Shown: positions 46 through 21,129 of the stretch, one piece after another
Position numbering within the stretch: the first letter of the stretch is position 1
Layout: each line of letters begins with the position of its first letter
DNA from: an uncultured Candidatus Saccharibacteria bacterium
GTDB taxonomy: Bacteria > Patescibacteriota > Minisyncoccia > Phycocordibacterales > XYD1-FULL-46-19
Length of the DNA: 64,000 nt
Direction: 5' to 3'
NCBI GenBank assembly: GCA_964639285.1
Contig: CAZXCI010000001.1
Coordinates: 42,343-106,342, forward strand
Notes under the pieces: generated by a model
Databases searched by the model: none
The model's input: only the letters and a program-made list of their open reading frames with translations
What the model was told of the DNA's origin: nothing
Translations under genes and position numbers: made by a program

Positions 46-1173
46 ATGGCTGATATAGGAAAAAAGACGATTCTTATTGCTACGGGCCTTTATCCTCCCG
101 ATATTGGGGGTCCAGCTACTTATAGTCATCTGTTGAGTCAAGAATTGCCCCGGAGAGGCATTGGGGTGAAGATCTTAAGTTTCGGGGGGGTTCGTTCTTT
201 GCCGAAGATTATGCGTCATTTTGTCTATGGCTGGCGGGTTTTTAAGTTGTCTTCTCGGTATAGTATTATTTACGCCCAAGACCCAGTCAGCGTTGGTCTG
301 CCGGTTTGTCTGGCCTGCTTTTTTGCCAGGAGGAATTTTATTTTAAAGATTGTTGGTGACTACGCTTGGGAGCAGGGGAGCCAGCGCTTTGGTGTGACGG
401 ATCTTCTTGATGAATTTTCGGTTGAATTCAGGAAGTATCCTTGGCCGGTTAAATTATTAAAATTGATTCAGGTTGGTGTTGCTAAGAGAGCTAGCAAAGT
501 AATTGTTCCTAGTAATTATCTTAAGAAGATTGTTTCTAATTGGGGGATTAACCCAGAGAAGATTAGAGTTATTTATAACGCTTTTAACGCCCCAGCGATT
601 TTGCCAGACAAAGAATTTTTGCGTACTGAATTAAAACTTAGCGATAAGGTCATGGTTAGTGTTGGACGCTTGGTTCCCTGGAAAGGCTTCTCTCTTTTAA
701 TCAAGTTAATGCCAGAATTAATTTCTCTTCATCCGGATCTAAAATTTTTTATTGCTGGCGAAGGACCAGACTGGGATCAACTAAATAAAATGATTGTCGA
801 CAATAAGATGGCTGACCATGTGTTCTTAACGGGTCGCTTGTCTCAACTAGAACTTTTGAAACTTATTAAAGCGAGCGATCTTTTTATTCTCAATACCTCT
901 TATGAGGGTTTCTCCCATCAGCTATTAGAAGTGATGTGGTGTGGAACGCCAATTGTTACGACGAATGTCGGTGGGAACCCAGAATTGATCACTAATGGGC
1001 AAAATGGATTAATTATTAGCTACAATAGCTCCGAAGAGATTAAAAAGGCGATTGACAAAATTTTGTCTGATAAAATTTTTGCCGGCAACCTTTCTCGTTC
1101 GGCGAGAGAGAGAATTAAGTTATTTAGTTTAGATCGCATGATTGATGATTTAGTTGAAGAAATAGGAATATGA
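46..1173 (+). CDS. Glycosyltransferase family 1 (GT4-like)
   Basis: C-terminal GT-B motif EGFSHQLLEVMWCGTPIVTTNVGGNPELI. ATGA start/stop overlap with the next gene. Confidence 0.8.
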   Translation: MADIGKKTILIATGLYPPDIGGPATYSHLLSQELPRRGIGVKILSFGGVRSLPKIMRHFVYGWRVFKLSSRYSIIYAQDPVSVGLPVCLACFFARRNFILKIVGDYAWEQGSQRFGVTDLLDEFSVEFRKYPWPVKLLKLIQVGVAKRASKVIVPSNYLKKIVSNWGINPEKIRVIYNAFNAPAILPDKEFLRTELKLSDKVMVSVGRLVPWKGFSLLIKLMPELISLHPDLKFFIAGEGPDWDQLNKMIVDNKMADHVFLTGRLSQLELLKLIKASDLFILNTSYEGFSHQLLEVMWCGTPIVTTNVGGNPELITNGQNGLIISYNSSEEIKKAIDKILSDKIFAGNLSRSARERIKLFSLDRMIDDLVEEIGI

Positions 1174-2351
1174 ACTCTGTTAGGGATGATAAAGTAATAG
1201 TGTTAGAAAAAAATAGTGATAATAAAATCTCTAACGGAGTGAAAGTTTTAATGATTTCGACCGACAGGCTTATTTTTCATACTGGGAGTGATGTCCGTCG
1301 TCGCCTTCTTGATTATGGAGCATTATTTGCTGAAATTCACGTCATTGTTTTTTCTAATAAAAAATTAGGGCATCATGAAGAACAATTGACTGATAATGTT
1401 TTCCTCTACCCAACCAATTCTTTGAATCGCCTTTTTTATATTTGGCAAGCGATTAAGATTGGTTTGACTTTGCTCGGCCGGAAAGGGAATTGGGTTATTA
1501 CTAGCCAAGATCCCTTCGAGACGGGGGTTGTCGCTCTGTGGTTTAAATGGAAGAAGAAGATTCAATGGCAAGCTCAAATTCATACCGATTTTCTTAGCCC
1601 ATTTTTTGCCCAAGAATCTTGGCTTAATTGGTTGAGAGTTAGGTTGGCCGGCTTTCTTCTCCCTAGGGCTGATAAAATTAGGGTTGTTTCCCTGCGGATT
1701 AAAAAATCTTTGGCTGATTGGAATCTGAAAACAGAGCCAGTCGTTTTGCCGATCTTTGTTTCTCCTAAAACAGAAGTAGTCTGTTCTCCCGCTATGGATC
1801 TCCATAATAAATATCCTCAATTTTCGTTTGTCATTCTTATGGCATCGCGCTTAACTGTGGAAAAAAATTTCAGATTAGCCATCGACGCTTTTGCTGAAGT
1901 TGCCCTCGACAGGAAGAACGTTGGTTTAGTCATTGTTGGTCAGGGACCAGAGAAGGAGCATCTAAAATCTCTAGCAAAAACCTTCCGGGCTGGAGATCAA
2001 GTCATTTTTGAAGATTGGCAATCTAATTTGGATTGTTATTATAAGACGGCTGATCTCTTTATGCTTACCTCTAATTATGAAGGCTATGGTCGAACAATTA
2101 TTGAAGCTAGTCTGGTGGGCTGTCCGGTTCTTAGTACTGATGCTGGCTTGGTTGGCGAAGTTTTTAGCCAAGATGAAATTTTGGTCTGTCCCGTAGGGGA
2201 TGAAAAGTGTCTTTCTGAAAAGCTTGGCTGGGCAATTGCTAATCATGGCCAATTATCAGCAATGGGGGAAAGGTCGCGCTCTAAACTAGGAACTTTCTTA
2301 TCTGGGAAGGACAGTTATTTAGAAGCTTACCGTCAATCTCTTAGTGTTTAA
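1170..2351 (+). CDS. Glycosyltransferase family 1
   Basis: Motif NYEGYGRTIIEASLVGCPVLSTDAG typical of the GT1 nucleotide-sugar binding region. Confidence 0.75.
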   Translation: MNSVRDDKVIVLEKNSDNKISNGVKVLMISTDRLIFHTGSDVRRRLLDYGALFAEIHVIVFSNKKLGHHEEQLTDNVFLYPTNSLNRLFYIWQAIKIGLTLLGRKGNWVITSQDPFETGVVALWFKWKKKIQWQAQIHTDFLSPFFAQESWLNWLRVRLAGFLLPRADKIRVVSLRIKKSLADWNLKTEPVVLPIFVSPKTEVVCSPAMDLHNKYPQFSFVILMASRLTVEKNFRLAIDAFAEVALDRKNVGLVIVGQGPEKEHLKSLAKTFRAGDQVIFEDWQSNLDCYYKTADLFMLTSNYEGYGRTIIEASLVGCPVLSTDAGLVGEVFSQDEILVCPVGDEKCLSEKLGWAIANHGQLSAMGERSRSKLGTFLSGKDSYLEAYRQSLSV

Positions 2352-3378
2352 TCTGAACAAAATGAGAAATAAATTGTTAATTATTACTCAAAAAGTAAAT
2401 AAGGATGACCAAATCCTCGGCTTTTTCCATCGTTGGATTGAAGAATTTGCTAAACATTACGAAAAGGTAACTGTGATTTGTTTGGAACAAGGAATTTTCT
2501 CTCTGCCCAGTAATGTCAAAATCTTATCTTTAGGTAAGGAAAAAAAAATAGGAAGAATCAAATATTTATTTAATTTTTATAAATACATTTGGCAGGAGAG
2601 AAAGAATTACGGTTCTGTTTTTGTTCATATGAACCCTATTTATATTATTTTGGGGGGCCTCTATTGGCATCTGGAGGGAAAGAAAATTGCTCTTTGGTAT
2701 ACGCATAAGCAAGTTGACCTGAAGCTCAAAATCGCCGAAAAGTTGACCGATACCATCTTTTCCGCTTCAGTCGAAAGTTTCCGTTTACCAAGTAGCAAGC
2801 TTGTTGTGACCGGCCATGGTATTGATACTGATTTGTTTCGACCTCAAGATGGAGAGCATGAGGAGTTTGTTATCTTGTCGGTGGGGCGTTTAGCTAAAAC
2901 AAAAAATCACCATCTTTTGATTGAGGCCCTGGCCCATTTGCCTCAAATGGCTAAACCGTGGAAGCTCTTGATTATTGGCGGGGCAATTTATCCTGAAGAT
3001 TTTATTTATCAAGAGGATCTCCTTAGTTTAATTAAAAAATTCAATTTAGAAGATCGGATAACAATGACCGGCTCAATTTTGCCAAGTGGTATGGTTGAGT
3101 ATTATCAGTCGGCCGACTTACTCGTTAACTTAAGCGACACTGGCAGTTTAGACAAGGTAGTTCTTGAGGCGATGGCTTGTGGCTTGAGTATTGTCTCCTG
3201 CAACGAGGCCTTTGCTAAAATTTTGTCCAAAGATTTGTTTGTCGAGAAAGATCCAACTAGTATCTCTCTAGCTATTGTTCGAGCATTGGCGTTGTCAACT
3301 AACAGTCAAAATCGGGATTATATTGTTGCTAATCATAATTTGGTTCGGCTAATTGACAAAATCAGAGGATTGCTATGA
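2344..3378 (+). CDS. Glycosyltransferase family 1
   Basis: Motif SLDKVVLEAMACGLSIVSCNEAF. Same glycan locus. Confidence 0.7.
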   Translation: MFNLNKMRNKLLIITQKVNKDDQILGFFHRWIEEFAKHYEKVTVICLEQGIFSLPSNVKILSLGKEKKIGRIKYLFNFYKYIWQERKNYGSVFVHMNPIYIILGGLYWHLEGKKIALWYTHKQVDLKLKIAEKLTDTIFSASVESFRLPSSKLVVTGHGIDTDLFRPQDGEHEEFVILSVGRLAKTKNHHLLIEALAHLPQMAKPWKLLIIGGAIYPEDFIYQEDLLSLIKKFNLEDRITMTGSILPSGMVEYYQSADLLVNLSDTGSLDKVVLEAMACGLSIVSCNEAFAKILSKDLFVEKDPTSISLAIVRALALSTNSQNRDYIVANHNLVRLIDKIRGLL

Positions 3379-4481
3379 AAATTTCTTATATTGCCAATAT
3401 CCGTATTCCTACAGAAAGAGCCCATGGGATCCAAATTGTGAAAATGTGTGAAGCTTTTTCTCATCTTGGCCATGAAGTTGAGCTCGTTGTTCCACTGAGA
3501 AAGAATGAAATTACCGCTGATGTTTTTTCTTTTTATCGAACAAGAGAAACATTCAAGATAAAATATATTCCTTCTTTTGGTTTTTTTGGGAGTAGCCGAC
3601 TTAGTTTTTGGTTGCAGGCAGTCATCTTTTCTTTTGCGGCTTTTTTCTATCAACTATTTTATCCGGCTGATCTCATTTTTTGCCGCGATGAATTGCCAGT
3701 TTTTTGTTTGAGCTTTTTAAAAAAAAATGTTGTTTGGGAGGCTCACGGGGAAAGAGATAATTTTTTAGTTAAATTTTTATTAAAGAAGATACTTGCTCTC
3801 GTGGCTATTACGAGAGGTCTTAAAGATTTTTATTCCGACAAAGGGATTGCTAGCGAAAAAATTCTTGTTGCTCACGACAGTGTTGACCTGAAGATGTTTT
3901 CTGTTGAAAGGGGGAGAGAAGATTGTCGCTTGCAACTTGGACTACCTGTTGATTACGAGATTATTCTTTACACGGGACACCTTTATGATTGGAAAGGAGC
4001 CCAAGTCTTAGCTGAAGCTGCGACTTTTTTCCCCGCTAAGAGATGGGCGGTTTTTGTAGGAGGCACAGAAAAAGATCTCAAAGAGTTTAGAAATAAAAAT
4101 AAAAAAAATTCTAAACTTATGATTATTGGTCATCGACCATATGAAGAAATGCCTCTTTGGATGAAGGCGGCCAATGTGCTAATATTACCTAATACTAGCC
4201 CCCGTCCGACTTCGCCAATGAAACTTTTCGAATATATGGCTAGTGGTGTCCCTATTGTTTCCTCTGATTTGCCGACAATCAGAGAAGTTTTGAATGAAAA
4301 CAACGCTCTCCTGGTCGAGCCTGGTAATCCGGAGGCTCTATGGAAGGGGATTGGCCTCGTTATTAATGATGATGTCTTCGGAAAAAAAATTTCCCAGTAC
4401 GCTTTAGCGACTGTAAAAGAAAATTCTTGGGAAAAGAGGGGAGAAAAAATCATGACTTTTATCAAAAATGTCTCGGCTTAA
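3375..4481 (+). CDS. Glycosyltransferase family 1
   Basis: Motif MKLFEYMASGVPIVSSDLPTIREV. N-terminal membrane-associated segment. Confidence 0.75.
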   Translation: MKISYIANIRIPTERAHGIQIVKMCEAFSHLGHEVELVVPLRKNEITADVFSFYRTRETFKIKYIPSFGFFGSSRLSFWLQAVIFSFAAFFYQLFYPADLIFCRDELPVFCLSFLKKNVVWEAHGERDNFLVKFLLKKILALVAITRGLKDFYSDKGIASEKILVAHDSVDLKMFSVERGREDCRLQLGLPVDYEIILYTGHLYDWKGAQVLAEAATFFPAKRWAVFVGGTEKDLKEFRNKNKKNSKLMIIGHRPYEEMPLWMKAANVLILPNTSPRPTSPMKLFEYMASGVPIVSSDLPTIREVLNENNALLVEPGNPEALWKGIGLVINDDVFGKKISQYALATVKENSWEKRGEKIMTFIKNVSA

Positions 4482-5823
4482 ACAAAATTTTAATGGTGAT
4501 AGGCTAATTTTTCGGAGTAAGGGTGCCGAGGACTCTCATTTCCTAGGAGACTTTATTGGTTCCCAGTCAGTTCTCAATGACTGTTCGATTTATGACTTCT
4601 TACTTTTTGGGACCATCTTGCCCCCATTGTCTCCTTTGTCTGGAGTTTCCACTTTGTTTCCCGGGGAGTTAGAGGAGGGAGACAATCAATATCGCCATCT
4701 TGATGTTGCCATTAAGGATCAAAGTTTAGAAAAATTTGTCTCTGATTTTGACGACCTTTTGACTAATTATTTTAGTAATTATTCTAGGAAAGATAAGGCT
4801 CTGCTTTTGTCTGGCGGGATTGATTCGGCTATCATCTTAAGCTATCTTGGAAAAGATACAACTTGTCTTACTTGGGGTGGATGGGGAGAAAAATCTAGTG
4901 ATATCGTTTACTCTAAGATGACGGCTGATCGTTATGGAGTTGCGAAACATATTTATGTCCAAGCTGATTATGATAGAGATATTGAACTTTATGAGAAGAA
5001 GGTTAAAGAATTAAAAATACCCCTTCTTTTTTCTAATGTTATTCCCTTTATTCGTCTTTCGGAGGCGGGACAGCAAGCTGGGCTGAAAAGCTGGCTTATG
5101 GGTCAGAATGCTGATACGGTGCTTGTTTCTTATGCTCCAGAGGTTGCGGTAAGGCGTTTGTCGGTACTCAATAATTGGTTGCCGTTCAATCCTTTGTGGT
5201 TTTCTAATAATAGGAAAAGGCATCTTTTTTCAACCAGAAGTCTGATTCGTTTATTTGCTTACTTTAAATCGAACGGAATCTTCCCTGGAAGATGGATTAA
5301 ATTACCCCAAAATTATTTCGAAGAAAAAGAAGCTGTTCTTGCTCATTATCTTAAGCCCCAGAATCTTTCTCAAAAAATTATCTTAACAGAAGAGTTTTTG
5401 TCTGAGGCTCGTCGTAATCAGGTCTACCAAAATGAAATACCTCTGAGCTATGGTATAAAGGTTGATTGTCCATATTACACTAAGCAGTTTATAAATCTGG
5501 CTTTATCTGTTCCTGATCGATTACGAAGAGCTGGTAATTATGACAAGATAATTTTCAAAGAGTTAGCCAAGAAACGAAATGTTCCCCTAGAAGTAATAAA
5601 TAAGGGCAAAAAAGGTCTTTCTTATGGCTCTACTGATTTTATTAAAGAAAAAAAACACATTTCTATCTGGGACGCAATGGAGTCCGATGATTTTTTAAAC
5701 AAGTTTGTTAATGTGAAAGAAATAAGAAAAACTAAGGAGGACGATTTTCTTGTTTTTGATGTTTTGAGAAGTTTGTATAGTTACGGTCGCCTGGTTGTCA
5801 AACCTCATAACATTAAATTTTGA
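4468..5823 (+). CDS. Asparagine synthase-like PP-loop ATP pyrophosphatase (amidotransferase, WbpS-like)
   Basis: PP-loop SGGIDS (LLSGGIDSAIILSYLG). Sits inside a polysaccharide locus, as WbpS-like amidotransferases often do. Confidence 0.55.
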   Translation: MSRLKQNFNGDRLIFRSKGAEDSHFLGDFIGSQSVLNDCSIYDFLLFGTILPPLSPLSGVSTLFPGELEEGDNQYRHLDVAIKDQSLEKFVSDFDDLLTNYFSNYSRKDKALLLSGGIDSAIILSYLGKDTTCLTWGGWGEKSSDIVYSKMTADRYGVAKHIYVQADYDRDIELYEKKVKELKIPLLFSNVIPFIRLSEAGQQAGLKSWLMGQNADTVLVSYAPEVAVRRLSVLNNWLPFNPLWFSNNRKRHLFSTRSLIRLFAYFKSNGIFPGRWIKLPQNYFEEKEAVLAHYLKPQNLSQKIILTEEFLSEARRNQVYQNEIPLSYGIKVDCPYYTKQFINLALSVPDRLRRAGNYDKIIFKELAKKRNVPLEVINKGKKGLSYGSTDFIKEKKHISIWDAMESDDFLNKFVNVKEIRKTKEDDFLVFDVLRSLYSYGRLVVKPHNIKF

Positions 5824-6649
5824 TTGTCTCATGGATCAAGATAAAGAAAAGATTAAGTGTAGCGTTGGTATTATCGTTTTTAATCGAGAGGCGAGTTTGC
5901 GAGCAACACTAGAATCAGTCAAAGATTTTGCTGAGATTATTATCTGTGATGGCGGAAGTACTGATGGGACGTTAAAAATTGCCAGAGAATATGGTTGCAA
6001 AATTATCTCTCAAGCTCAGGAGCATAAAAGATCGGATAATAGCATTGATAATTTCTCTGGAGTTCGGAATCAAACCCTCGGGGTATCCCATTACGATTGG
6101 TTTCTTTATGTTGATTCGGATGAATTTCTATCGACAGAGGTGGTGACAGAAATTCGATCGATTATAGCTAAAGAGACGCCCGAATACTGGGTTTACAACA
6201 TGCCTCGAAAATTTATAGTTAATGGAAAGAAAGTTGATTGTGCTATTACTTACCCTTCTTATCAAACCAGATTTTTTAACAAGCGGGCGGTAACTGGATT
6301 TACCCGAAAAGTCCATGAACGTATTCAAGTTAAGGATGGCTTCGTCAAAGGGTTCTTGTTAGCGTGTACTTGGGCTCCACTAGACTTTGGAGAGTTAAAG
6401 AAGAAAAACGATTATTATCTAACGATAGAGGAGAATCGAGACATAACTTTCTATAATTGGCTAGTCTTTATCTTGTTTAAGACAGTTGCTTCGTCTGCTT
6501 TGTCAATCTTGCGCTATTTGAAGATGCTTCTTTTCTGTCGGGGGAACAAAATGCCCTGGTATAATGAATATATTAGACATCGCTATAATTTAAAGTTAAT
6601 CTTTGTTACGGGTAAAAAATTTTTATCTATTCGCCAGAGAAATGATTAA
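5795..6649 (+). CDS. Glycosyltransferase family 2
   Basis: N-terminal GT-A signature VGIIVFNREASL...ICDGGSTDGT, DxD-like DSDE, C-terminal TM segments. Confidence 0.7.
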   Translation: MSNLITLNFDCLMDQDKEKIKCSVGIIVFNREASLRATLESVKDFAEIIICDGGSTDGTLKIAREYGCKIISQAQEHKRSDNSIDNFSGVRNQTLGVSHYDWFLYVDSDEFLSTEVVTEIRSIIAKETPEYWVYNMPRKFIVNGKKVDCAITYPSYQTRFFNKRAVTGFTRKVHERIQVKDGFVKGFLLACTWAPLDFGELKKKNDYYLTIEENRDITFYNWLVFILFKTVASSALSILRYLKMLLFCRGNKMPWYNEYIRHRYNLKLIFVTGKKFLSIRQRND

Positions 6650-7295
6650 TAGTTGGATTATGTTTCAGAAAATTACTAGGGAAAAAATTAATAAGCTTGT
6701 TTCTCAATATGCAACGGATACTTCTGTCTTGGATATCGGGGCCGGCGGCTCTGTTTATGGTAAGTATTTTCCCAATAGGATCTCTGTCGATATTGATCCG
6801 TTAAGAAATCCTGATATTATTGCCGATGCTCACGCTCTGCCATTTAAAGACGGGGAGTATGTTTTTATTCTTTGTACTGAAGTATTAGAACATCTTAAAA
6901 ATCCTCAAGTGGCGATCAGGGAGATGTCCCGAGTTCTTGATCATGGGGGGGTCTTACTTTTAACGACGAGATTTGTTTATCCTATTCATGATAGTCCTAA
7001 TGATTATTGGCGTTTTACTAAGTATGGGTTACAGGAATTGTTTAGTGATTGGGAAATTGTGAGGTTAATCTCTGACACAGAGAACTTTTCCACTATTGCT
7101 GTTCTTCTCCAAAGGATCATTTTTCAGACTTCTTTAAGAGCCAATAGGTTAGTTAAAGTAATCTTGACCATCTTGACTCATATCTTTAGGAGAATGGATT
7201 TTCTGACAAGATATGAATATGGCGAGATAGGAAAAAAGACTAAAGAGAAAAATATCATGCCCAGTGGCTATTTTTTGGTATGCAGAAAAAAATAA
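6603..7295 (+). CDS. Class I SAM-dependent methyltransferase
   Basis: Motif I LDIGAGGSVYG and the post-I/II pattern LKNPQVAIREMSRVLDHGGVLLL. Confidence 0.7.
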   Translation: MLRVKNFYLFAREMINSWIMFQKITREKINKLVSQYATDTSVLDIGAGGSVYGKYFPNRISVDIDPLRNPDIIADAHALPFKDGEYVFILCTEVLEHLKNPQVAIREMSRVLDHGGVLLLTTRFVYPIHDSPNDYWRFTKYGLQELFSDWEIVRLISDTENFSTIAVLLQRIIFQTSLRANRLVKVILTILTHIFRRMDFLTRYEYGEIGKKTKEKNIMPSGYFLVCRKK

Positions 7296-7948
7296 AAAAT
7301 AAAGAGTTTCTATTTGGCCTATCGCGAAGTGATTTTCTTTTCTATCTTCCTTTGACGATCAACAGTAAGGTTTTAGAGATTGAATGTGGTTTTGGGACTC
7401 ACGCTTTCAACATTGCGAATTTCGTTAAAGAGATTGTTGCCGTTGACAGTCAGGTCGTCAATATCAATTTTTGTGAAAAAAGGAAGAGGCAAGAACAAGT
7501 AAATAATATTAATTTCCTCGAGTTTGAGACTGAAGATTTGAACTTTCCCCGGGAAACTTTTGATGTAATTTTAATCTCTAATTATCAGTTATTGGGTAAA
7601 AATGAGCGAATATTTAAACAATGTTATCAATGGCTCAAACCTCAAGGGACCCTGTATTTTGGGGTTAAGGTTTTGGGGGGTCTTTGGTGCTTGGATCACT
7701 ATCGACGATATTTGCAACGAGTTGGTTTTTCTAAAGAACCTCAGATTTACATTGCTTATCCCAGTCACTTGATTCCGCGTTTTATGATTCCGAAAGATGA
7801 CACTCTGGCTTTAAATTTTATCCTAAATTCTATGACTGCTTATAAGGGCTTTAGAGGTAAATTGATTCGGGGCTTAATTAAGGCCCCCCTTTTTACAAGA
7901 ATTTTTAGGAATTTGTTTTCTGACTATGCTTTTTTTGTGAAAAAATGA
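7280..7948 (+). CDS. Class I SAM-dependent methyltransferase-like
   Basis: VLEIECGFGTHAF (motif I-like), FDVILISN, WLKPQGTLYF. Confidence 0.5.
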   Translation: MQKKIKNKEFLFGLSRSDFLFYLPLTINSKVLEIECGFGTHAFNIANFVKEIVAVDSQVVNINFCEKRKRQEQVNNINFLEFETEDLNFPRETFDVILISNYQLLGKNERIFKQCYQWLKPQGTLYFGVKVLGGLWCLDHYRRYLQRVGFSKEPQIYIAYPSHLIPRFMIPKDDTLALNFILNSMTAYKGFRGKLIRGLIKAPLFTRIFRNLFSDYAFFVKK

Positions 7949-8781: not shown

Positions 8782-8783
8782 CG

Positions 8784-13336: not shown

Positions 13337-13376
13337 AAGGATTGAATTTAAAATATTAGCCAAATTAAATAATAAT

Positions 13377-14240
13377 ATGAAAAAACCGGTCATTATTGCT
13401 GAAATTGGCTGTAATCATAAAGGTGATTTACAGATTGCCAAACAGCTTATAACCATCGCCAAAGAATTTTGTGGGGCTGATGTCGTAAAATTTCAAAAAA
13501 GAACCCCCAAAGAACTTTTAACAAAAGAAGAATATAATACACCTCATCCCGTACCAGAAAATTCTTATGGTCCAACTTATGGCTGTCATAGAGAATTTTT
13601 AGAATTTAGTATTGCTCAACATCAGAAGCTCAAAAAATTTTGTGAGAAATTGGGTGTTGTTTATTCTACTTCTATTTGGGATATGACTTCAACAAAAGAA
13701 ATTGTCGCTTTGAAACCAAAACTAATAAAAATACCATCAGCTTGTAACTTAAACTTTGAAATGCTTGGCTATCTTTGTGATAAATATAAAGGGGAGATTC
13801 ACTTATCGTTGGGGATGACCACTAAAAGAGAGGAGGAGAAAATAGTCTCTTTTTTTGAAAAAAGAAGGCGGGCCAAAGACTTAGTTATCTATAGTTGCAC
13901 TTCTGGCTACCCTGTTTCTTTTGAGGACGTTGCTTTATTAGAGATTTCTAGATTGAGAAAAAAATTTGGGAAACGAGTTAAATCGGTCGGCTTTTCCGGC
14001 CATCACCTTGGCATCGCCGTCGATGTTGCAGCTATGACTTTGGGGGCTTCTCATATTGAGAGGCACTTTACTCTTGATCGAGCATGGAAGGGAACTGATC
14101 ATGCCGCAAGCCTTGAACCTGGTGGTCTTAGGAAGCTCTGTCGGGACGTAGCGAATGTCGCTCTTTCCTTGGATTACAAGAAGGAGGAAATTCTCGATGT
14201 CGAAAAAGTTCAGAGGAAGAAGCTGAAGAGGTTAAATTAA
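13377..14240 (+). CDS. neuB: N-acetylneuraminate/nonulosonate synthase (NeuB family) lacking C-terminal SAF domain
   Basis: IIAEIGCNHKGDLQIAKQLITIAKEFCGADVVKFQK matches the NeuB TIM-barrel N-terminus. Only 287 aa, so no antifreeze-like SAF domain. Confidence 0.7.
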   Translation: MKKPVIIAEIGCNHKGDLQIAKQLITIAKEFCGADVVKFQKRTPKELLTKEEYNTPHPVPENSYGPTYGCHREFLEFSIAQHQKLKKFCEKLGVVYSTSIWDMTSTKEIVALKPKLIKIPSACNLNFEMLGYLCDKYKGEIHLSLGMTTKREEEKIVSFFEKRRRAKDLVIYSCTSGYPVSFEDVALLEISRLRKKFGKRVKSVGFSGHHLGIAVDVAAMTLGASHIERHFTLDRAWKGTDHAASLEPGGLRKLCRDVANVALSLDYKKEEILDVEKVQRKKLKRLN

Positions 14241-14250
14241 ATTTGTAAAA

Positions 14251-15885
14251 ATGGATCAGAAGTATCTTTTTAAGGGCAATATTTCTTTCTATGGCTATAT
14301 GGGGAAAAAACTCCCTGATTTTGTTTACAAGAAGACAGAGGGAACATCCAAGGTGTTTGTTCGGGAAGACGAGAATTTTTCCTTAAAGGTAAATAGCGGC
14401 AATGTTCATGTCGTCGGTTATGGGAATCTCCTAGAAATGAGAGAAAAACAAGCCGATGTCATTTTTCTTGATCATCGGGCCACCAAGGTTTTACTTGCCA
14501 AATTTCCTGTTACTTCGCATTATTTATTATTAAGGCTGGTTCCACGCTGGAGCTGGCTAATTGCTATCCCTGGCCTAATTAGACGAGTTTTGATAGGTTT
14601 GGTTAAAATTGAGGGAATAGTAAAACTTCCTGCTGACGGCCAACAACAGCGCTGGCTGGTTATCAAGCATCTTTTGTCTCGTTCTTTGCAAACTCGTTAT
14701 TCAATTTCGAGCGAGGTTGGTATACAGGGGCTATTAGACTATCTTAATCAAGCTGGGATTAAATATGTGATCTTAAGGTTTTATGAAAAATTACCAGCGC
14801 TCAATCGAATTGGTGGCGATATCGATATTTTGGTTTCTGACGAAGATGAGGAGAAAATGAGGGAATTTCTTCGGGCCCATCCTGGGACAATCGGAGTAGA
14901 CGTTTGGACTCCCTCAAGAACAAGTCACAATAGCATTACTTATTATCCGCCCCCGCTTGCTCGACAAATTATCGCAAGTGCTATCGGGGGTCCAGCTAAC
15001 TCAAAAGTTCCAGCTCCCAAAGAGGCATTTCTATCTTTTGCTTATCATGCCTTATATCATAAGGGCTGTCTTGCTGGGGTGCCAACAAATTTATCTGGCC
15101 TTGAAGTTAATAAATATCCGGAAAATGATTACACTGGTGTCTTGAAAAAAATGGCAGAAGATTTAAAGATTGATATTGATATAAACATGGAAGATTTGGA
15201 CAATTATCTTCGTTCGGTTGGCTGGCAGCCAAAGTTTGATACTTTAGCTAAAATTGCCCCCTGGAACAAATGGGTTAAAAAACGTTTTTTCTCAATGGCC
15301 GCGGTAAATGAAATTGGCCTAGGAGTTTTAATTATTAAAAATAAAGCCTTTGAGCTGGGGGTGGTCGATCAAATCTTAGAAGAAATAGTCACTCTAGGGG
15401 AATTTAAAATTATCAAGACTAAGAGATTTAATAAAGAAGAAGCTAGTCATGTGGCGAATCAGTTAAGAGGGGGAGTTTGGGACGACGTATCTGGGGCGCA
15501 GGTTCAATATTTCCCAGCTATGGCGGTAGTTATTATGGATATTCACTTTGCCCGTTCTTCGAAAGCGAGAGCTGTTCAAGGTGGTCTCCATAGGCGAATT
15601 CGTGAGCTAAAGGCTGGTTTGAGGAAAAAATTTGATAAGGAAAAAATTAGCCTGATTCATGCCACTGATTTTACTTATGAGGCTTGGGAGTATATTGATG
15701 ATTGTTTCCCAGACGAGAGGGAATTGATAAAACAAGAGATAGAAGAGATTTATCAAAATATTCCAATTTCTTGGAAGGACAGGATTGAGCTTAAAATTTT
15801 TTCCTTGCCGAGCTTAACTTACCATTATCTTTCTCGGTTAAAGAAGGATGCCTTAGGTAAACTAGTCCAAGTTTTGGTAAACTAG
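14251..15885 (+). CDS. Hypothetical protein (glycan-locus associated)
   Basis: 544-aa ORF with coding-like composition and no recognisable motif. GGDIDILVSDEDE is only weakly NTase-like. Confidence 0.4.
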   Translation: MDQKYLFKGNISFYGYMGKKLPDFVYKKTEGTSKVFVREDENFSLKVNSGNVHVVGYGNLLEMREKQADVIFLDHRATKVLLAKFPVTSHYLLLRLVPRWSWLIAIPGLIRRVLIGLVKIEGIVKLPADGQQQRWLVIKHLLSRSLQTRYSISSEVGIQGLLDYLNQAGIKYVILRFYEKLPALNRIGGDIDILVSDEDEEKMREFLRAHPGTIGVDVWTPSRTSHNSITYYPPPLARQIIASAIGGPANSKVPAPKEAFLSFAYHALYHKGCLAGVPTNLSGLEVNKYPENDYTGVLKKMAEDLKIDIDINMEDLDNYLRSVGWQPKFDTLAKIAPWNKWVKKRFFSMAAVNEIGLGVLIIKNKAFELGVVDQILEEIVTLGEFKIIKTKRFNKEEASHVANQLRGGVWDDVSGAQVQYFPAMAVVIMDIHFARSSKARAVQGGLHRRIRELKAGLRKKFDKEKISLIHATDFTYEAWEYIDDCFPDERELIKQEIEEIYQNIPISWKDRIELKIFSLPSLTYHYLSRLKKDALGKLVQVLVN

Positions 15886-17138
15886 GCTTTGGCTTTTATA
15901 AATAAGAATAACATAAAAACTAGGCTGAATAGTCTCGAACCGAGTTCGGATAAAATTGCCCCCATAATCCCATAAGTAGGAGTTAGGGCCAGAGTTAGGG
16001 TTAGTTTGACGATTGAGGAAGAAAAAGTGTAAGCATAGAGTTTCTTTGTGTGAGCCTGGGCACCGAAGACTGTGCCTAGGATCTTTTTTGGGAAAAAGAG
16101 GAGACTTAGGGCGAAAATCTGTGAATAAAAGATGGCATTTAGGTATTGTGGAAAAAAGATTTTGAATATATAAGGTGCGATAAAGAAATAAACAATGATG
16201 ATGACAATTAGTCCAAAGAAGATTTTTATTATTTTTTGGGACAATGTTTGTCTAATCTCGCCAAAACTTTTTTGGGCAAACTTAGGGAAAGCCAGTGTCG
16301 GGATATTTTCCAGTATTAGTTGGATTTGGTTTGGGAAGGCTTTAGCAAAAGCAAAAGTAGCAATGGCGGCAGCTCCTGTGAAATTCCAAAGTAGGATATT
16401 GTCTAGGGTATCAACAATCGTACTAACTACGCTTAAGAAACTTAAATGAGACCCGTAGGTTAGAGTCTTGGGGTCTTGTTTGTCGTTGTCTAGATACCTT
16501 TTGTAGACAAGTTGGAAGGCGATAAAGCGGGTTAAGGTGTAAGAAACAAAATAGGCTAGCAGGATTAGGGCTAAGTTTCTTGTGATGAAAATTGTTAGGG
16601 CAATTAAAATTGCAGCAGTTGCCTGAACTCCAATCTCATAAAATATCGAAATCTTGAAAAGTTTTTTGCCTGTTAGGATAGAATTAAAGATCCCTAGGGT
16701 GTCAACGAAGGGGAGAAAAAACGAAGCGAGGAAAAAAGAAATGGCTAACTCTGGCTGACTGTTGAAAAAATAATAAATTGCGACACTCAAACTGGCAATA
16801 CCCCCAATGGTTCCCCAGAGAATTTTCATTCTTAAAACTTGGAAAATTGTTCCTTCAAAACCTCTTGCGATAGCCCGGCTAACAGCCTGGCCCATTCCTG
16901 GTAATGTGGGGATTGTGAGAATTGCAAAGATTGAAAAAAAGTATTTATACTTACCGTACAATTCAGGGGAGACAAAGTTGGCGAAAGCCAGGCTTAGCCC
17001 GAAAGCGATTCCTGCCGATAGTATTTTTTTAAATGATAGCCAAAAATTACCAGAAGCAAAATACACCATATCAGTCTTAGTGTAACGCTCGGTCCAGCGG
17101 AGAAGATGGTAGGAGTGGTTTCTTAGCTTATTTATCAT
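15882..17138 (-). CDS. Polysaccharide biosynthesis protein / Wzx-like oligosaccharide flippase
   Basis: 418 aa and about 12 predicted TM helices. Located in the glycan locus and convergent with upstream genes. Confidence 0.65.
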   Translation of the reverse strand: MINKLRNHSYHLLRWTERYTKTDMVYFASGNFWLSFKKILSAGIAFGLSLAFANFVSPELYGKYKYFFSIFAILTIPTLPGMGQAVSRAIARGFEGTIFQVLRMKILWGTIGGIASLSVAIYYFFNSQPELAISFFLASFFLPFVDTLGIFNSILTGKKLFKISIFYEIGVQATAAILIALTIFITRNLALILLAYFVSYTLTRFIAFQLVYKRYLDNDKQDPKTLTYGSHLSFLSVVSTIVDTLDNILLWNFTGAAAIATFAFAKAFPNQIQLILENIPTLAFPKFAQKSFGEIRQTLSQKIIKIFFGLIVIIIVYFFIAPYIFKIFFPQYLNAIFYSQIFALSLLFFPKKILGTVFGAQAHTKKLYAYTFSSSIVKLTLTLALTPTYGIMGAILSELGSRLFSLVFMLFLFIKAKA

Positions 17139-17305: not shown

Positions 17306-18217
17306 ATGAAATATACTTTTGGTCAGATAATCAAGATTAGTGAGGCGGTTAGAAAAATTAATCGAATATTTCATGATTATGAAGCCAATTCCTACGAGCA
17401 AAGACATCCTGAGATCTATAAGCGGGAGATAAAAAATTGGCAAGATAATTATTATCAATATATTAAACCGATTCAGGATCGAAAGAGGACAGGTATAACA
17501 ATCCTTGACGTCGGGACAGGAAACGGTTTTGTTATTGAATCCTTTGCTGACTTTCTGACTACTGACGACCGGGTAATCTTCTCTGACATATCATCATCGA
17601 TGTTGAAAGTGGTTAGAAAAAAGTTTGAGAAGAACGGGTTTAAAAAAGAATATTTACTTAGCGATGCTTCGTCTCTTGACCTGCCACAGGGAAGTGTTGA
17701 CATTGTGACTATGAACTCAGTTTTGCATCATTTGCCAGACGTGAAGAAGCCCCTTCTTCTTTTTGGGCGTTTCCTAAGTAAAAATGGTGCTGTTATCATT
17801 AGGCATGAGCCAAATAGGCTTTTTGCAGAAAACATCGTCCTCAGGTTTGTCTTCGGGATTATTAATTTTCTGAAACAGGGCAGGCAAAAGGAATCTTTGC
17901 CAATTAAAGTAAAATTACTGGAGAAATTTAGTAGAGAAGGATTTGAATTCGAGGATAATTTTGACTATCAAGATCTTATCTCCATTGTTGACGTTAGATC
18001 GCCGACAGCCCGTGGAGAATTGGATAAGAATAAAGGGTTTGATCCTTTTTTCCTTGGGAGGGAGTATTTTGCGGGCTATCGTGTTTATATTAATACCTAT
18101 AATTTCCTAGGCAAAGTTGATGAGAAAAGTAGCCTAGGGAGAAGAACTCTCTCTTCGATCCTAAAATCATTGTTTCCTTCTTGTGGCTACCTTTTTGAGT
18201 TAATCGCCATTAAGTAA
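17306..18217 (+). CDS. Class I SAM-dependent methyltransferase
   Basis: Motif I ILDVGTGNGFV, motif II-like DIVTMNSVLHHL. Confidence 0.65.
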   Translation: MKYTFGQIIKISEAVRKINRIFHDYEANSYEQRHPEIYKREIKNWQDNYYQYIKPIQDRKRTGITILDVGTGNGFVIESFADFLTTDDRVIFSDISSSMLKVVRKKFEKNGFKKEYLLSDASSLDLPQGSVDIVTMNSVLHHLPDVKKPLLLFGRFLSKNGAVIIRHEPNRLFAENIVLRFVFGIINFLKQGRQKESLPIKVKLLEKFSREGFEFEDNFDYQDLISIVDVRSPTARGELDKNKGFDPFFLGREYFAGYRVYINTYNFLGKVDEKSSLGRRTLSSILKSLFPSCGYLFELIAIK

Positions 18218-18220
18218 TGA

Positions 18221-18230
18221 GGGGGGGGGA
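18221..18230. repeat. Homopolymeric G10 tract in intergenic region
   Basis: gaggggggggggatttt directly after the stop of the 17306-18217 gene and about 95 bp upstream of the FkbM methyltransferase start. Unusual in an AT-rich genome. Confidence 0.9.
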
Positions 18231-18325
18231 TTTTAGATTTATTTTTAATCTTATTAGCCGCTAGGTTTTATATGGGCCCCCAGAGTCTTTGCTTTTTCTA
18301 GTTTTAGGTCTTTTTTTGTGTTATA

Positions 18326-19072
18326 TTGCAAGCGCTTATCTTAGCTAAATCCATGTTGATTAAAAAGACAATTAAAAGGATAATTCCCCAACATTTTCAT
18401 TTTTTCTTGGCTGAGGCTAAGAATTTGCTCACTAATGGTTATTGTCATTGTCATTACTCTCAGTTTGGTGAAGACTTGATAATTAAGAGTATCACAAAGA
18501 ATAAAAATAAAGGTTTTTATGTCGATGTTGGGGCTCATCATCCTTTTCGTTATTCTAACACTCGTCTTTTGTATAAGCGGGGTTGGCGGGGAATTAATGT
18601 CGAACCAAATCACTACACGATAAAATTATTTAGAATCTTTCGACGTCGAGACATTAATTTAGAAATTGGTGTTGGGTCTGAAGATGGAGTGGCCGATTAT
18701 TATTATTTTTCTGACCCGGCTTATAATACTTTTTCTCGAGAGCAGATGGAGGAATCCCTCAAGAATAATAAATGGCTAAAATTAAAAAAGAAAGTCAATT
18801 TATCCATTTCTACCTTAAAAACGATCCTTACTAAATATCTTCCTGCAGGGGTTCCTGTTGATTTCTTGAATGTGGACGTAGAAGGATTGGATATGGTGGT
18901 CCTTCTGTCTAATGACTGGGAAAAATTCAAGCCCAGAATTATTTCTGTTGAATCTCCAAATTTTGATTTGGATAGACCTAATGAAGATGAGACTTATAAT
19001 TATTTAAAAAACCTGGGATACAAACTCGAGGCGGTGACTGGCTGCAGTCTAATTTTTGTGCTATATTCCTAG
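18326..19072 (+). CDS. FkbM-family methyltransferase
   Basis: SQFGEDLIIK...GFYVDVGAHHPFRYSNTRLLYKRGWRGINVEPN is the diagnostic FkbM-domain pattern. Confidence 0.7.
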   Translation: MQALILAKSMLIKKTIKRIIPQHFHFFLAEAKNLLTNGYCHCHYSQFGEDLIIKSITKNKNKGFYVDVGAHHPFRYSNTRLLYKRGWRGINVEPNHYTIKLFRIFRRRDINLEIGVGSEDGVADYYYFSDPAYNTFSREQMEESLKNNKWLKLKKKVNLSISTLKTILTKYLPAGVPVDFLNVDVEGLDMVVLLSNDWEKFKPRIISVESPNFDLDRPNEDETYNYLKNLGYKLEAVTGCSLIFVLYS

Positions 19073-19074
19073 AC

Positions 19075-21129
19075 ATGAATACTAATAAAATTTTACATTG
19101 GGTCACTCTGGTGGGGCTCTTTGCTGTCCCCTTTATCCCGCTTATTGTTACATCCAGCGCTTTTTTTCCTTTTATTACTGGGAAGAACTTTGCTTTTCGT
19201 GTGATCATCGAAATAGTCTTTGCCTCTTGGTTGATACTCGCCTTGCGAGACAGAAGCTATTGGCCCGAGAAATCATATCTCCTTTATGCTGTTTTAGCTT
19301 TAGTAGTAATTACTGGAATTGCGACTTTCTTTGGCGAGAATCCTTATCGTAGTTTCTGGTCTAATTATGAACGAATGGGTGGTTACGTTAGCCTTCTCCA
19401 TTTGGGGGCTTACTTTGTTGTTTTGACATCTCTTCTCAAAAAGAAGGCTGAATGGTTTTGGTTTGCTAATATTTCTCTTGGGGTCAACTGGCTTATTGTT
19501 TTTTACTCGCTTGGGCAATTGGCAGGAAAGACGGAGATTCATCAGGGGGGTGTTCGTCTTGACGCGACCTTAGGCAATGCGACTTATCTTGCTGTCTACG
19601 TTTTGTTTGGCATATTTATATCTCTCTATTTATTGTCTCAAGCTAAAAATATCTGGTTAAAGATTTTTTATGGACTTACCACTTTAGTTAATTTGTTTCT
19701 GCTTTATAATACTGCAACTCGAGGGACGATTCTTGGTCTTATTGCTGGCCTCTTTGTTTTTGCTGGGCTAGTCGTTCTCCGGGGAGAAAAAAGACAGAAA
19801 AAGTGGGCCGGCGGAATCGTCTTAGTTCTTGTCCTCCTCGTGGGGGGTTTTCTTTTAGCGAAAGACTCCTCTTTTGTCACTAATAGCCCTGTACTGTCTC
19901 GTTTTTCGAGTATCTCGGCGACAGAGGCGACAACCCAGTCTCGTTTTCTGATTTGGAACATGAGTTTGCAAGGATTTAAGGAGCATCCTCTGCTTGGTTG
20001 GGGGCCAGAGAATTACAGTCTGGTCTTTAGTAAGTATTATGACCCGGCCATGTGGCGACAAGAGCCATGGTTTGATCGTTCTCATAATATCTTTTTTGAT
20101 TGGCTAATTGATGCTGGCTTGCTCGGTCTGCTAGCTTATCTGTCTATCTTTCTAGTGGCCTTTTATCTTCTTTGGGCGAAGAGAGGAAAGCTTGGTTTTG
20201 GTGGGTATCTTTTTGTGGGCCTAATAGTTGCCTATCTCTTCCATAACATATTTGTCTTTGATAATTTGGTGAGCTATCTCTATTTCTTTGCTGTTGTCGC
20301 TTATGTCAATTTTTGGGTGGCAGAGGAGGGGGGAGTTCCAGCTGAATTAAAGGTAAAAACAAATTATCAAATAGATAAAAAGAAAACTTCTTCGGTGGGA
20401 AATATTTCCCTCGGTGTTAATGTTGCTTCCGGAGTAATTCTGATTATTCTGGTTGGAGTTCTTTATTACATTAATTACAAACCATGGTTGGTCTCAGTTG
20501 ATTTGATTTCAGCTATTCGTCCTAATACTAACTCAGAAAAAAGCTTTTCTATTTTTCAGGAGATTTTTGAACGGAAGACTTTTGGTTCTGGTGAAGCTCG
20601 AGAACAGTTGATCAACAAAACGATGAATATCGTTCGCGACGAGAAAATTCCTGATGAGCTTAAAATAAAATTTGTTAAATTAGTCGATGAACAAATTAAA
20701 GAACAATTGGGGCGCTTTGATGGAGATGCGAGATCCAATTTGTTTTTTGGTTCTTACTTGGCATCGACCGGGCGAGTTGATGAGGGCTTAGCTTTGTTGC
20801 AAAAGGCTCAGGCTCTCTCTCCCAAAAAGCAAGCGATTCTCTTCCAGCTGGTTTCGATTTATGTGCAAAAGCAGGATGCTACGAGTGCCGTTGCGACAGC
20901 TAAGAGTGCTTATGAGCTCGATCCGGCTTATCCCGAAGCGAGGAAGATTTACGCTATTATTCTCTTCATGACGGGTCAGACTAAATTAGGGTATGAAATT
21001 ATTGCGCCGATTAAAAATGATCCTGATTATTTTAACGATCCGCGCTTTCTCAACATCTATGAACAAATGGGTGATACAAAATCAATTCAAGAGATAAAAG
21101 ATTTGCAATTGAAAGAAGCAAAAAAATAA
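19075..21129 (+). CDS. O-antigen ligase/polymerase (Wzy_C)-like polytopic membrane protein with C-terminal TPR repeats
   Basis: About 10 TM helices in the N-terminal 400 aa and a periplasmic-loop region typical of Wzy/WaaL. C-terminal roughly 200 aa form TPR-like helical repeats (QKAQALSPKKQAILFQLVSIYVQKQD...). Confidence 0.6.
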   Translation: MNTNKILHWVTLVGLFAVPFIPLIVTSSAFFPFITGKNFAFRVIIEIVFASWLILALRDRSYWPEKSYLLYAVLALVVITGIATFFGENPYRSFWSNYERMGGYVSLLHLGAYFVVLTSLLKKKAEWFWFANISLGVNWLIVFYSLGQLAGKTEIHQGGVRLDATLGNATYLAVYVLFGIFISLYLLSQAKNIWLKIFYGLTTLVNLFLLYNTATRGTILGLIAGLFVFAGLVVLRGEKRQKKWAGGIVLVLVLLVGGFLLAKDSSFVTNSPVLSRFSSISATEATTQSRFLIWNMSLQGFKEHPLLGWGPENYSLVFSKYYDPAMWRQEPWFDRSHNIFFDWLIDAGLLGLLAYLSIFLVAFYLLWAKRGKLGFGGYLFVGLIVAYLFHNIFVFDNLVSYLYFFAVVAYVNFWVAEEGGVPAELKVKTNYQIDKKKTSSVGNISLGVNVASGVILIILVGVLYYINYKPWLVSVDLISAIRPNTNSEKSFSIFQEIFERKTFGSGEAREQLINKTMNIVRDEKIPDELKIKFVKLVDEQIKEQLGRFDGDARSNLFFGSYLASTGRVDEGLALLQKAQALSPKKQAILFQLVSIYVQKQDATSAVATAKSAYELDPAYPEARKIYAIILFMTGQTKLGYEIIAPIKNDPDYFNDPRFLNIYEQMGDTKSIQEIKDLQLKEAKK

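Follow-up and report, generated by a model that had tools for sequence, protein, structure and literature searches.

In vertebrates, N-acetylneuraminic acid (Neu5Ac) is made by NANS, NANP and CMAS along a phosphorylated route, in which a phosphorylated sugar and phosphoenolpyruvate (PEP) give a 9-phosphate that is then dephosphorylated and activated with cytidine monophosphate (CMP) (PMC6200933). In the pathway to CMP-Kdn (Kdn, 2-keto-3-deoxynononic acid, a deaminated sialic acid) of Bacteroides thetaiotaomicron (BT1713-BT1715) and Prymnesium parvum, a phosphatase step stands between the synthase and the CMP-synthetase. The P. parvum Kdn-9-phosphate (Kdn-9-P) synthetase uses mannose-6-phosphate (Man-6-P) only, with no conversion of N-acetylmannosamine-6-phosphate (ManNAc-6-P), mannose, N-acetylmannosamine, mannosamine, arabinose or arabinose-5-phosphate (Ara-5-P) (PMC6200933). 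In the CMP-Kdn synthetase of the same organism (PpNeuA), Arg196 forms a hydrogen bond to O5 of Kdn and clashes with the N-acetyl group of Neu5Ac, and the exchange R196L switches the specificity from Kdn to Neu5Ac (PMC12934254). As for the transfer step, TagB-like GT-B proteins of the BFO_1060 family are genetically required for the addition of pseudaminic (Pse) or legionaminic (Leg) acid in Tannerella forsythia (PMC5420450). The logic of the CMP-Kdn pathway can be recognised again in the locus considered here, positions 46-21129 of a 64-kb stretch of DNA from an uncultured Candidatus Saccharibacteria bacterium (contig CAZXCI010000001.1; this whole stretch is called the window), which a first-pass annotation had described as a surface-glycan locus with a nonulosonic-acid module. 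This region probably represents the right-hand part, 21 kb long, of a surface-glycan island of the Wzx/Wzy type that makes CMP-Kdn by the phosphorylated route.

The synthase and the CMP-synthetase point to Kdn

Three consecutive genes, in the order HAD (haloacid dehalogenase), NeuA, NeuB, would form the Kdn module:

11880-12587, plus strand: HAD-IA (C1-cap) phosphatase, 235 aa (PF00702, 62.6 bits; HAD_2, 51.4 bits)
12629-13336, plus strand: member of the NeuA/CMAS family, predicted CMP-Kdn synthetase (PF02348, CTP_transf_3, 89.7 bits)
13377-14240, plus strand: member of the NeuB family without SAF domain, predicted Kdn-9-P synthase, 287 aa (PF03102, 226.7 bits)

The match of the synthase to PF03102 spans model positions 1-239 of 241, and there is no match to PF08666, the SAF or antifreeze-like domain. 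Over 284 residues the protein is 61% identical (353 bits) to the P. parvum Kdn-9-P synthetase, whose sequence of 312 aa, also SAF-less, was translated from the supplement of PMC6200933; with PseI, a SAF-containing NeuB and the SAF-less NeuB-family protein 6ncs of Leptospira it shares about 30% identity in each case. In a neighbour-joining tree the window NeuB and 14 family members share one clade with the P. parvum enzyme, outside which lie PseI, the SAF-containing NeuB, Leptospira 6ncs and the type of NeuB found in L091, one of the loci compared below. The nonulosonate module proposed earlier is thus borne out and resolves as Kdn type, phylogeny of NeuB having been suggested as the way to choose between Neu5Ac, Kdn and Leg/Pse. 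That NeuB is of the Kdn-9-P synthase type, and would be expected to use Man-6-P, is well supported by homology. No gene for NeuC, an aminotransferase or a dehydratase is found among the open reading frames (ORFs) annotated across the 64-kb window, and therefore the substrate would have to be a central metabolite.

The CMP-synthetase leads to the same sugar through a single residue. Arg197 of the window NeuA aligns with PpNeuA Arg196 (alignment to PDB 9t4z), at a gate-keeper position that is occupied in Neu5Ac enzymes by Leu (mouse CMAS) or Phe (Vibrio cholerae, Neisseria meningitidis) and that holds Arg in 74 of 79 aligned NeuA sequences, namely the window's own and 78 partners of the NeuB clade. 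CMP-sialate synthetases score 103-115 bits in a PDB search, with CMAS 6ifd at 114.8 bits and the P. parvum CMP-Kdn synthetase 9t4z at 113.3 bits, versus at most 41 bits for KdsB. The prediction that this protein is a CMP-Kdn synthetase can be regarded as well supported.

Could the two genes nevertheless belong to a pathway for the eight-carbon sugar Kdo (3-deoxy-D-manno-octulosonic acid), with enzymes of the KdsA/KdsB/KdsC type? The CTP_transf_3 family spans both KdsB and NeuA, and KdsB models of NCBIfam do match NeuA, weakly, with 30-58 bits. The synthase, however, is a PF03102 NeuB and not a member of the DAHP/KdsA family, the PDB scores of NeuA put CMAS far above KdsB, and the P. parvum homologue of NeuB makes no use of Ara-5-P. 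Resolution as Kdo-8-phosphate synthase and KdsB was the outcome that the first-pass annotation had named as fatal to its proposal; the check was run and gave no refutation, so that Kdo genes are effectively refuted by the family of the synthase and the scores of NeuA, and we attach next to no probability to them.

Another reading is that the module serves an N-acylated nonulosonate (Neu5Ac, Leg or Pse) made by the classical unphosphorylated route, with the precursor genes elsewhere in a genome that is seen only through 64 kb. NCBIfam returns NeuB_NnaB (194 bits) and PseI (145 bits) for NeuB and, as the best match of NeuA, PseF (122 bits), all of which would suit this route. These scores, however, fall far under the equivalog cut-offs of 400, 340 and 206 bits, respectively, and because all of them do, NCBIfam is unable to name the sugar. 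The identities of NeuB (about 30% to PseI and the SAF-containing NeuB versus 61% to the Kdn-9-P synthetase) speak against the classical route, as do the missing SAF domain, the gate-keeper Arg197, which would clash with a 5-N-acyl group, and the fact that the locus has no NeuC, PseB/C or LegB/C gene. It was rejected on the NCBIfam scores, the identity of NeuB and the neighbour-joining tree, and must be considered very improbable.

Two related loci, L056 and L017, of Patescibacteria/Saccharibacteria, present a variation on the Kdn pair. Their Kdn-type NeuB is accompanied by a divergent NeuA (L056 7437-8201, L017 8285-9043), about 32% identical to that of the window, with Met and not Arg at the gate-keeper position. 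Both loci contain methyltransferase genes, one of which lies between NeuB and NeuA in L017, and the Met-bearing enzymes may activate a modified Kdn. The Saccharibacteria locus L017 further encodes a protein (10343-11059) with a cytidylyltransferase-like domain and a mannose-6-phosphate-isomerase C-terminal (cupin) domain, whose make-up would be consistent with a local supply of Man-6-P.

The synthase family reaches far beyond these organisms. In a survey of 80 genomes (L010-L089; proteins P0002-P0234), SAF-less NeuB proteins are 66-76% identical across Bacteroidota, Firmicutes, Verrucomicrobiota, Nitrospirota, Elusimicrobia, Patescibacteria, Saccharibacteria and methanogenic archaea, the archaeal members coming from Methanosarcinaceae, Methanomicrobiaceae and Methanoperedens. 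The name under which the SAF-less Kdn-type NeuB appears in databases is the generic 'N-acetylneuraminate synthase'. Because the protein is so conserved across two domains of life, these data suggest frequent horizontal transfer combined with systematic mis-annotation of Kdn genes. As an annotation rule, a SAF-less NeuB of about 290 aa that is at least 55-60% identical to the P. parvum enzyme and is accompanied by a NeuA with the gate-keeper Arg should be taken to indicate Kdn, not Neu5Ac. A homologue search seeded with the Bacteroides faecis protein gave no B. thetaiotaomicron name among the 120 matches listed.

The phosphatase and the transferase

In the order of steps that we infer, NeuB would convert Man-6-P and PEP to Kdn-9-P, the HAD-IA protein would most likely remove the 9-phosphate to give Kdn, NeuA would make CMP-Kdn from Kdn and cytidine triphosphate, and a TagF-like protein would most likely move Kdn from CMP-Kdn onto an oligosaccharide. 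Whereas the synthase and the CMP-synthetase have been dealt with above, the other two proteins must be judged largely by the company they keep.

In the HAD protein, the DxD motif (FDFDG) and the GDxxxD motif (GDQDSD) are intact; its gene shares 20 nt with the TagF-like gene and stops 41 nt short of neuA. The association of such genes is common to the clade: among 78 other loci with a Kdn-type NeuB, 61 have an adjacent partner NeuA, and in 65 the partner is a fusion with a HAD. In Heyndrickxia oleronia, in metagenome-assembled genomes of Bacteroidales, in B. faecis and in two metagenomic contigs (L008, L009), NeuB abuts a CTP_transf_3 domain fused to a KdsC-like C0 HAD, and the fused HAD of B. 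faecis scores 154.6 bits with BT1713, the Kdn-9-P phosphatase of B. thetaiotaomicron, versus at most 102.5 bits with KdsC. Unfused arrangements occur as well, in a Patescibacteria contig (L007) with an adjacent NeuA and a separate C0 HAD about 6 kb upstream, and in two other Patescibacteria loci with a separate C0 HAD between NeuB and NeuA. The first-pass annotation had seen in the HAD gene a hint of a route through a phosphorylated, Kdn-9-P-like intermediate, and this suggestion now finds strong support in the NeuB match, the gate-keeper Arg of NeuA and the clade-wide pairing with NeuA and HAD. The window protein itself lies outside the C0 KdsC/BT1713 family (about 160-190 aa, cap-less), and its best PDB matches are generic phosphatases with at most 26 bits. 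Judged by its context, it is a candidate Kdn-9-P phosphatase that would have replaced the KdsC type non-orthologously. The possibility that the window hides a KdsC-type phosphatase at another place was considered and rejected as well, tblastn with a BT1713-like HAD having found none.

The Heyndrickxia oleronia chromosome offers an observation in its own right. Between flagellin and fliD it carries a flagellin-glycosylation island (L003/L004 3777-12030) with a Maf protein (MptE-like), a pyruvyl transferase, the Kdn-type NeuB and the fused NeuA-HAD, a gene set that predicts a Kdn-modified, possibly pyruvylated, flagellin in this cultured member of the Bacillaceae.

The candidate for the transfer step is encoded directly upstream of the module:

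10538-11899, plus strand: TagF/TagB-like GT-B protein (PF04464, 34.1 bits against a cut-off of 22.1, residues 186-442)

It is the sole enzyme of a CMP/CDP-donor family in the locus. NeuA is the sole cytidylyltransferase among the 20 locus genes and hence CMP-Kdn is the only cytidine-activated donor that the locus can make; a TagD/TarI-type (CTP_transf_like) gene for the supply of CDP-glycerol or CDP-ribitol is absent from the same 20 genes, and no member of a recognised sialyl- or Kdo-transferase family is found in the locus. Homologues stand beside NeuB/NeuA genes in L056 (56% identity), L091 (42%) and L007 (27%), and in other Kdn loci its place is taken by polysialyltransferase-like, Maf or Capsule_synth genes. 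Residues W175-D176, G217, P219, R286, S345, D350, H381 and E399 are invariant. It is plausible that this protein is the CMP-Kdn:glycan Kdn transferase, for which it is the best candidate in the locus.

Several observations weigh against the pathway as outlined. The HAD differs in type from the KdsC/BT1713-like phosphatase of every other Kdn locus read, and it has no homologue in the 87 loci compared. The TagF-like protein reaches 31.3 bits with the BFO_1060 nonulosonate transferase family (NF046086; cut-off 200), over its C-terminal 50 residues; a PDB sequence search gave no solved relative, and its single-sequence AlphaFold model, with a predicted local distance difference test score (pLDDT) of 37.8, is unusable. 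Since in L091 the TagF-like and Methyltransf_24 genes accompany a NeuB of another type (28% identical), there is no specific tie between Kdn and the TagF-like enzyme. At the level of the whole locus, no initiating phosphoglycosyltransferase (WbaP/WecA type; Bac_transf, Glycos_transf_4) is present among the annotated window ORFs, although one may be encoded further to the left, and no chain-length regulator was seen in the window.

Do these points favour a different division of labour? The TagF-like protein could be a true polyol-phosphate (teichoic-acid-type) transferase supplied with a CDP-alcohol made elsewhere, in which case Kdn would be added by another enzyme, such as a GT4-type or an unrecognised transferase; the HAD would then have a housekeeping or unrelated role as a sugar phosphatase, leaving Kdn-9-P to a promiscuous phosphatase. 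Such a view draws on the Pfam match of the TagF-like protein, which is to Glyphos_transf itself, on the retention of its gene in L091, and on the lack of HAD homologues in other Kdn loci, and P. parvum is likewise without a homologue of a dedicated Kdn-9-P phosphatase. It is opposed by the lack of a TagD-like or glycerol-/ribitol-phosphate gene in a locus whose only encoded cytidine donor is CMP-Kdn, by the absence of a recognised sialyl- or Kdo-transferase where other Kdn loci have polysialyltransferase-like, Maf or Capsule_synth genes, and by the position of the HAD gene, overlapping the TagF-like gene and abutting neuA. In addition, an invariant W-D would stand where TagF has the catalytic W-H-G, the position being derived by rough model-position arithmetic from an unverified alignment. 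On balance this alternative seems unlikely, and Kdn transfer by the TagF-like protein after dephosphorylation by the adjacent HAD is the preferred scheme.

Assembly of the glycan and a conserved core beside secA

Downstream of the Kdn module lie the following genes, and the locus ends before secA (at 21536):

14251-15885, plus strand: uncharacterised 544-aa three-domain protein with methyltransferase-like N-terminal, middle and nucleoside diphosphate kinase (NDK)-like C-terminal domains
15882-17138, minus strand: Wzx-type flippase (PF01943, Polysacc_synt, 66.3 bits) with multiple transmembrane segments, the sole minus-strand gene
18326-19072, plus strand: FkbM-family methyltransferase (PF05050, 70.3 bits)
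19075-21129, plus strand: Wzy_C membrane protein with a C-terminal tetratricopeptide repeat (TPR) domain (PF04932, 85.8 bits, plus TPR_19)

The flippase and the Wzy/ligase-like protein with TPR repeats had both been named in the first-pass annotation, correctly, and they are the only membrane proteins among the locus genes. Wzx is 50-54% identical to its homologues in L056 and L091. Wzy_C-TPR has about 11 transmembrane segments followed by a soluble TPR tail, and its homologues in L091 and L092 (35-38% identical) lie directly upstream of secA. Going by their families, Wzx would flip the unit across the membrane, on whose outer side Wzy_C-TPR would polymerise it or ligate it to an acceptor.

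Which of the two activities is meant bears on the product itself. Wzy_C is a domain common to WaaL ligases, Wzy polymerases and PglL/PilO O-oligosaccharyltransferases, and it is conceivable that the locus makes a short, Kdn-capped and methylated oligosaccharide rather than a polymer, which Wzy_C-TPR would transfer en bloc, in a PglL/PilO-like manner, to a type IV pilin or S-layer protein. This would fit relatives that are monoderm-like Patescibacteria, in which there is no lipid A to act as acceptor, the TPR tail, which suggests protein binding, the lack of a chain-length regulator in the window, and the fact that Wzy_C-TPR belongs to the core irrespective of the sugar genes carried. The neighbourhood of the locus, however, yielded no identified pilin or S-layer gene, six or more glycosyltransferases are compatible with a repeat-unit polymer as well, and the best NCBIfam matches are far below their cut-offs. 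En bloc transfer to protein is thus a real, if somewhat less probable, alternative to a Wzx/Wzy-type repeat-unit glycan.

What sets this end of the locus apart is its constancy. The 544-aa gene, Wzx (on the minus strand), FkbM, Wzy_C-TPR and secA keep their order in L091 and L092, where the upstream genes differ. The cargo of L091 consists of another NeuB type with NeuA and of homologues of the TagF-like, Methyltransf_24 and kinase-like genes; that of L092 has no NeuB or NeuA and includes a sulfotransferase and a thymidylate-kinase-like gene. An FkbM-family gene stands beside the core also in L056, L017, L091 and L092, with BLAST homologues of the window FkbM in the first three, and in L056, from a Patescibacterium, 11 genes are syntenic with those of the window, at 37-68% identity. 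Named homologues and syntenic loci are the grounds on which the window genome is placed with the Patescibacteria. Because the core is kept beside secA while the upstream sugar genes vary, we read the locus as a variable glycan island with a conserved core at a fixed chromosomal site upstream of secA.

The 544-aa protein, which the earlier gene list had left out, is the least familiar member of this core. It has no Pfam assignment, and its roughly 120 homologues (P0236-P0354; L091 10001-11635; L092 10001-11629) are all annotated as hypothetical, except for one labelled nucleoside diphosphate kinase; one is fused to a GT2 domain. Only Patescibacteria or Candidatus Paceibacterota appear among the organism names attached to them, and the family looks restricted to this lineage. 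A confident AlphaFold model built with 38 sequences (pLDDT 87.7; predicted template modelling score, pTM, 0.80) resolves three domains, the last of which has the NDK fold with a catalytic-type His; His470 and Asp473 are invariant in an NDK-like motif, IHxTD...E.WEYI. The gene accompanies Wzx, FkbM, Wzy_C-TPR and secA with or without Kdn genes, as in L091 and L092.

What might such an arrangement be for? It may be speculated, though with considerable doubt, that a serotype-like hypervariable surface-glycan island upstream of secA exists across this Patescibacteria clade, that its invariant core of Wzx, FkbM, Wzy_C-TPR and the 544-aa protein represents an undescribed assembly or ligation machinery of which the 544-aa protein is a new obligatory component, and that the swappable cargo, in this locus methylated Kdn, sets the specificity of episymbiont-host recognition or of phage evasion. 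If this is true, the 544-aa protein could, for instance, recycle nucleotides or transfer phosphate in a step coupled to export. The NDK-like protein and the secA-side core are, in any case, candidates for new glycan-assembly biology.

Building and tailoring genes, and the limits of the locus

The genes upstream of the TagF-like gene, together with one methyltransferase gene between Wzx and FkbM, complete the inventory:

46-1173, plus strand: GT4-type glycosyltransferase 1 (PF00534, 143 bits), no transmembrane segment; another GT4 gene lies upstream, outside the window
1170-2351, plus strand: GT4-type glycosyltransferase 2 (PF00534, 102 bits)
2344-3378, plus strand: GT4-type glycosyltransferase 3 (PF00534, 81 bits); the gene caller's start is 2362 (338 aa in L001)
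3375-4481, plus strand: GT4-type glycosyltransferase 4 (PF00534, 77 bits), 43% identical to the L056 and 41% to the L017 homologue
4468-5823, plus strand: AsnB-like, synthetase-domain-only protein (PF00733, 65 bits, residues 111-395)
5795-6649, plus strand: GT2 glycosyltransferase (PF00535, 56.7 bits); the called start is 5831 (272 aa in L001)
6603-7295, plus strand: class I S-adenosylmethionine (SAM) methyltransferase 1 (Methyltransf_11/23), called start 6642, 57% identical to the L056 homologue
7280-7948, plus strand: class I SAM methyltransferase 2 (Methyltransf_25/11/31)
7945-8781, plus strand: small-molecule kinase-like protein of the APH/choline-kinase fold (PF01636, 21.2 bits against a cut-off of 23.2)
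8784-9893, plus strand: GT4-type glycosyltransferase 5 (PF00534, 137 bits), 51% identical to the L056 homologue
9884-10537, plus strand: Methyltransf_24 (TylF-like class) O-methyltransferase (PF13578, 51.9 bits)
17306-18217, plus strand: class I SAM methyltransferase 4 (Methyltransf_11/25/31)

The locus thus comprises 20 tightly spaced or overlapping ORFs, 19 on the plus strand and 1 on the minus strand. The genes of the earlier list have Pfam matches above the gathering score, with the kinase-like gene below its cut-off. Pfam confirms the six glycosyltransferases (five GT4-type, Glycos_transf_1, and one GT2) and the five SAM methyltransferases, one of them FkbM-type, and gives significant matches to the TagF-like GT-B protein, the HAD, NeuA and the SAF-less NeuB at the positions proposed. 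Two entries stood in part. The kinase-like gene is present and has an HGDLxxxN...IDWE motif (here HGDLGRPN...LIDWE), with homologues 44% identical in L056 and 37% in L091; its match to APH, however, falls short of the Pfam cut-off. The WbpS-like amidotransferase has its Asn_synthase domain but not the glutaminase domain with Cys2.

The latter protein (4468-5823) begins with MSRLK, without Cys2, and retains the PP-loop SGGIDS; none of the 87 loci compared encodes a homologue. The assignment as a glutamine amidotransferase was rejected for want of Cys2 and a class II glutaminase domain, and because the glutaminase half is absent the protein is predicted to be an ATP-dependent amidoligase using ammonia or an amine. 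The Methyltransf_24 protein is 58% identical to its L091 homologue, whose gene lies two genes upstream of the L091 TagF-like gene, and TylF/Methyltransf_24 genes occur also in the Kdn loci L009 and L056; the gene is linked to the TagF-like gene. GT4-type glycosyltransferase 4 is conserved in the related Patescibacteria loci L056 and L017. From their domains, the five or more GT4 enzymes and the GT2 enzyme would assemble the lipid-carried oligosaccharide in the cytoplasm, and up to five SAM methyltransferases, the amidoligase and the kinase-like enzyme would decorate it, with methylation of the glycan, at whichever sites, as the presumed work of the methyltransferases.

Whereas the right end of the island is set by secA, its left end lies beyond the window. 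The 1.2 kb that can be read there, from a 27.5-kb Logan contig (L001), contains within L001 1-1243 at least one more GT4 gene (365 aa) and the end of a further ORF. The locus is also carried by sample SRR8925806. The 21-kb gene list of the first-pass annotation was accordingly right in the genes it named and incomplete in two respects, the omitted 544-aa gene at 14251-15885 and the continuation to the left of the window. The G+C content of the locus is 0.36-0.41, compared with 0.39-0.52 in most of the remaining window. A scan of 15.5-21.7 kb found 17 promoter-like sites (14.2 expected from shuffled controls) and 14 terminator-like sites (5.4 expected), the latter mostly intragenic, and yielded no usable operon boundaries.

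Most of the other annotated window ORFs are housekeeping genes: GatB, GAPDH, a split transketolase, RpiB, Rpe, PfkB, an aldolase, a release factor, ribosomal proteins, PheST, GyrB, ThrRS and DnaE. Directly after secA (24317-28339) follow a 557-aa ORF without Pfam match, a PASTA-domain protein located in a patch of high G+C (0.52) and a PKD/fn3 protein, all three possibly envelope or surface proteins. A classic diversity-generating retroelement occupies 33310-38148. Its reverse transcriptase gene (34175-34873) is preceded by the template repeat (33701-33814, 114 nt), and its two variable repeats, 33310-33423 and 38035-38148, lie at the 3' ends of ORFs 30965-33430 (AAA_5, 821 aa) and 37193-38155, respectively. 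The two variable repeats are identical, and 18 of 18 mismatches to the template fall at template adenines; the same region contains an exact 300-nt duplication (32760-33059 = 37485-37784).

Comparison with known systems

The literature searched yielded no published link between Patescibacteria and Kdn or other nonulosonic acids. Patescibacteria spend their lives fixed to other microbes, and very little is known of the chemistry of their surfaces; the locus predicts that some of them display Kdn, probably methylated.

How far, then, does the proposed pathway depart from what has been described? With the P. parvum pathway the window module has in common a SAF-less synthase (61% identical) and the gate-keeper Arg of the CMP-Kdn synthetase. 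It differs from the pathway of B. thetaiotaomicron and P. parvum in that its phosphatase is of the HAD-IA type and unfused, not a C0 HAD of the BT1713 type, and in that the module is embedded in a 21-kb Wzx/Wzy locus, which includes five methyltransferases and belongs to a Patescibacteria-like genome. The sequence of steps is the same in the vertebrate Neu5Ac pathway, which starts, however, from ManNAc-6-P. NANS retains the antifreeze-like/SAF domain that the window synthase lacks, and NANP is presumably likewise a HAD-IA-type phosphatase, although the window HAD has no specific similarity to any solved NANP.

Tannerella forsythia (Tanf_01245/BFO_1060) provides the closest parallel to the TagF-like protein, as there, too, a TagB/TagF-like GT-B protein beside CMP-nonulosonate genes is the only candidate transferase, and the conserved C-terminus of that family is weakly matched by the window protein. 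The window protein is nonetheless not a member of that family (31 bits versus the cut-off of 200), and its donor would be Kdn and not Pse or Leg. A combination of Kdn with O-methylation has a possible counterpart in Sinorhizobium fredii, which reportedly makes a 5-O-methyl-Kdn polymer; the two would likewise meet in the glycan predicted here. With Wzx/Wzy O-antigen and capsule loci the island shares a flippase, a Wzy_C protein, many glycosyltransferases and modifying enzymes, low G+C, a fixed site and a variable cargo. It is distinguished from them by the fusion of Wzy_C to a TPR domain, by a core that includes the 544-aa methyltransferase-/NDK-like protein, and by its Patescibacteria-like host. 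Neither the Kdn pathway nor Wzx/Wzy loci nor TagB-like nonulosonate transferases are new in kind; what the present locus adds is two modest twists, a HAD-IA phosphatase in the Kdn module and a conserved NDK-like protein in the core.

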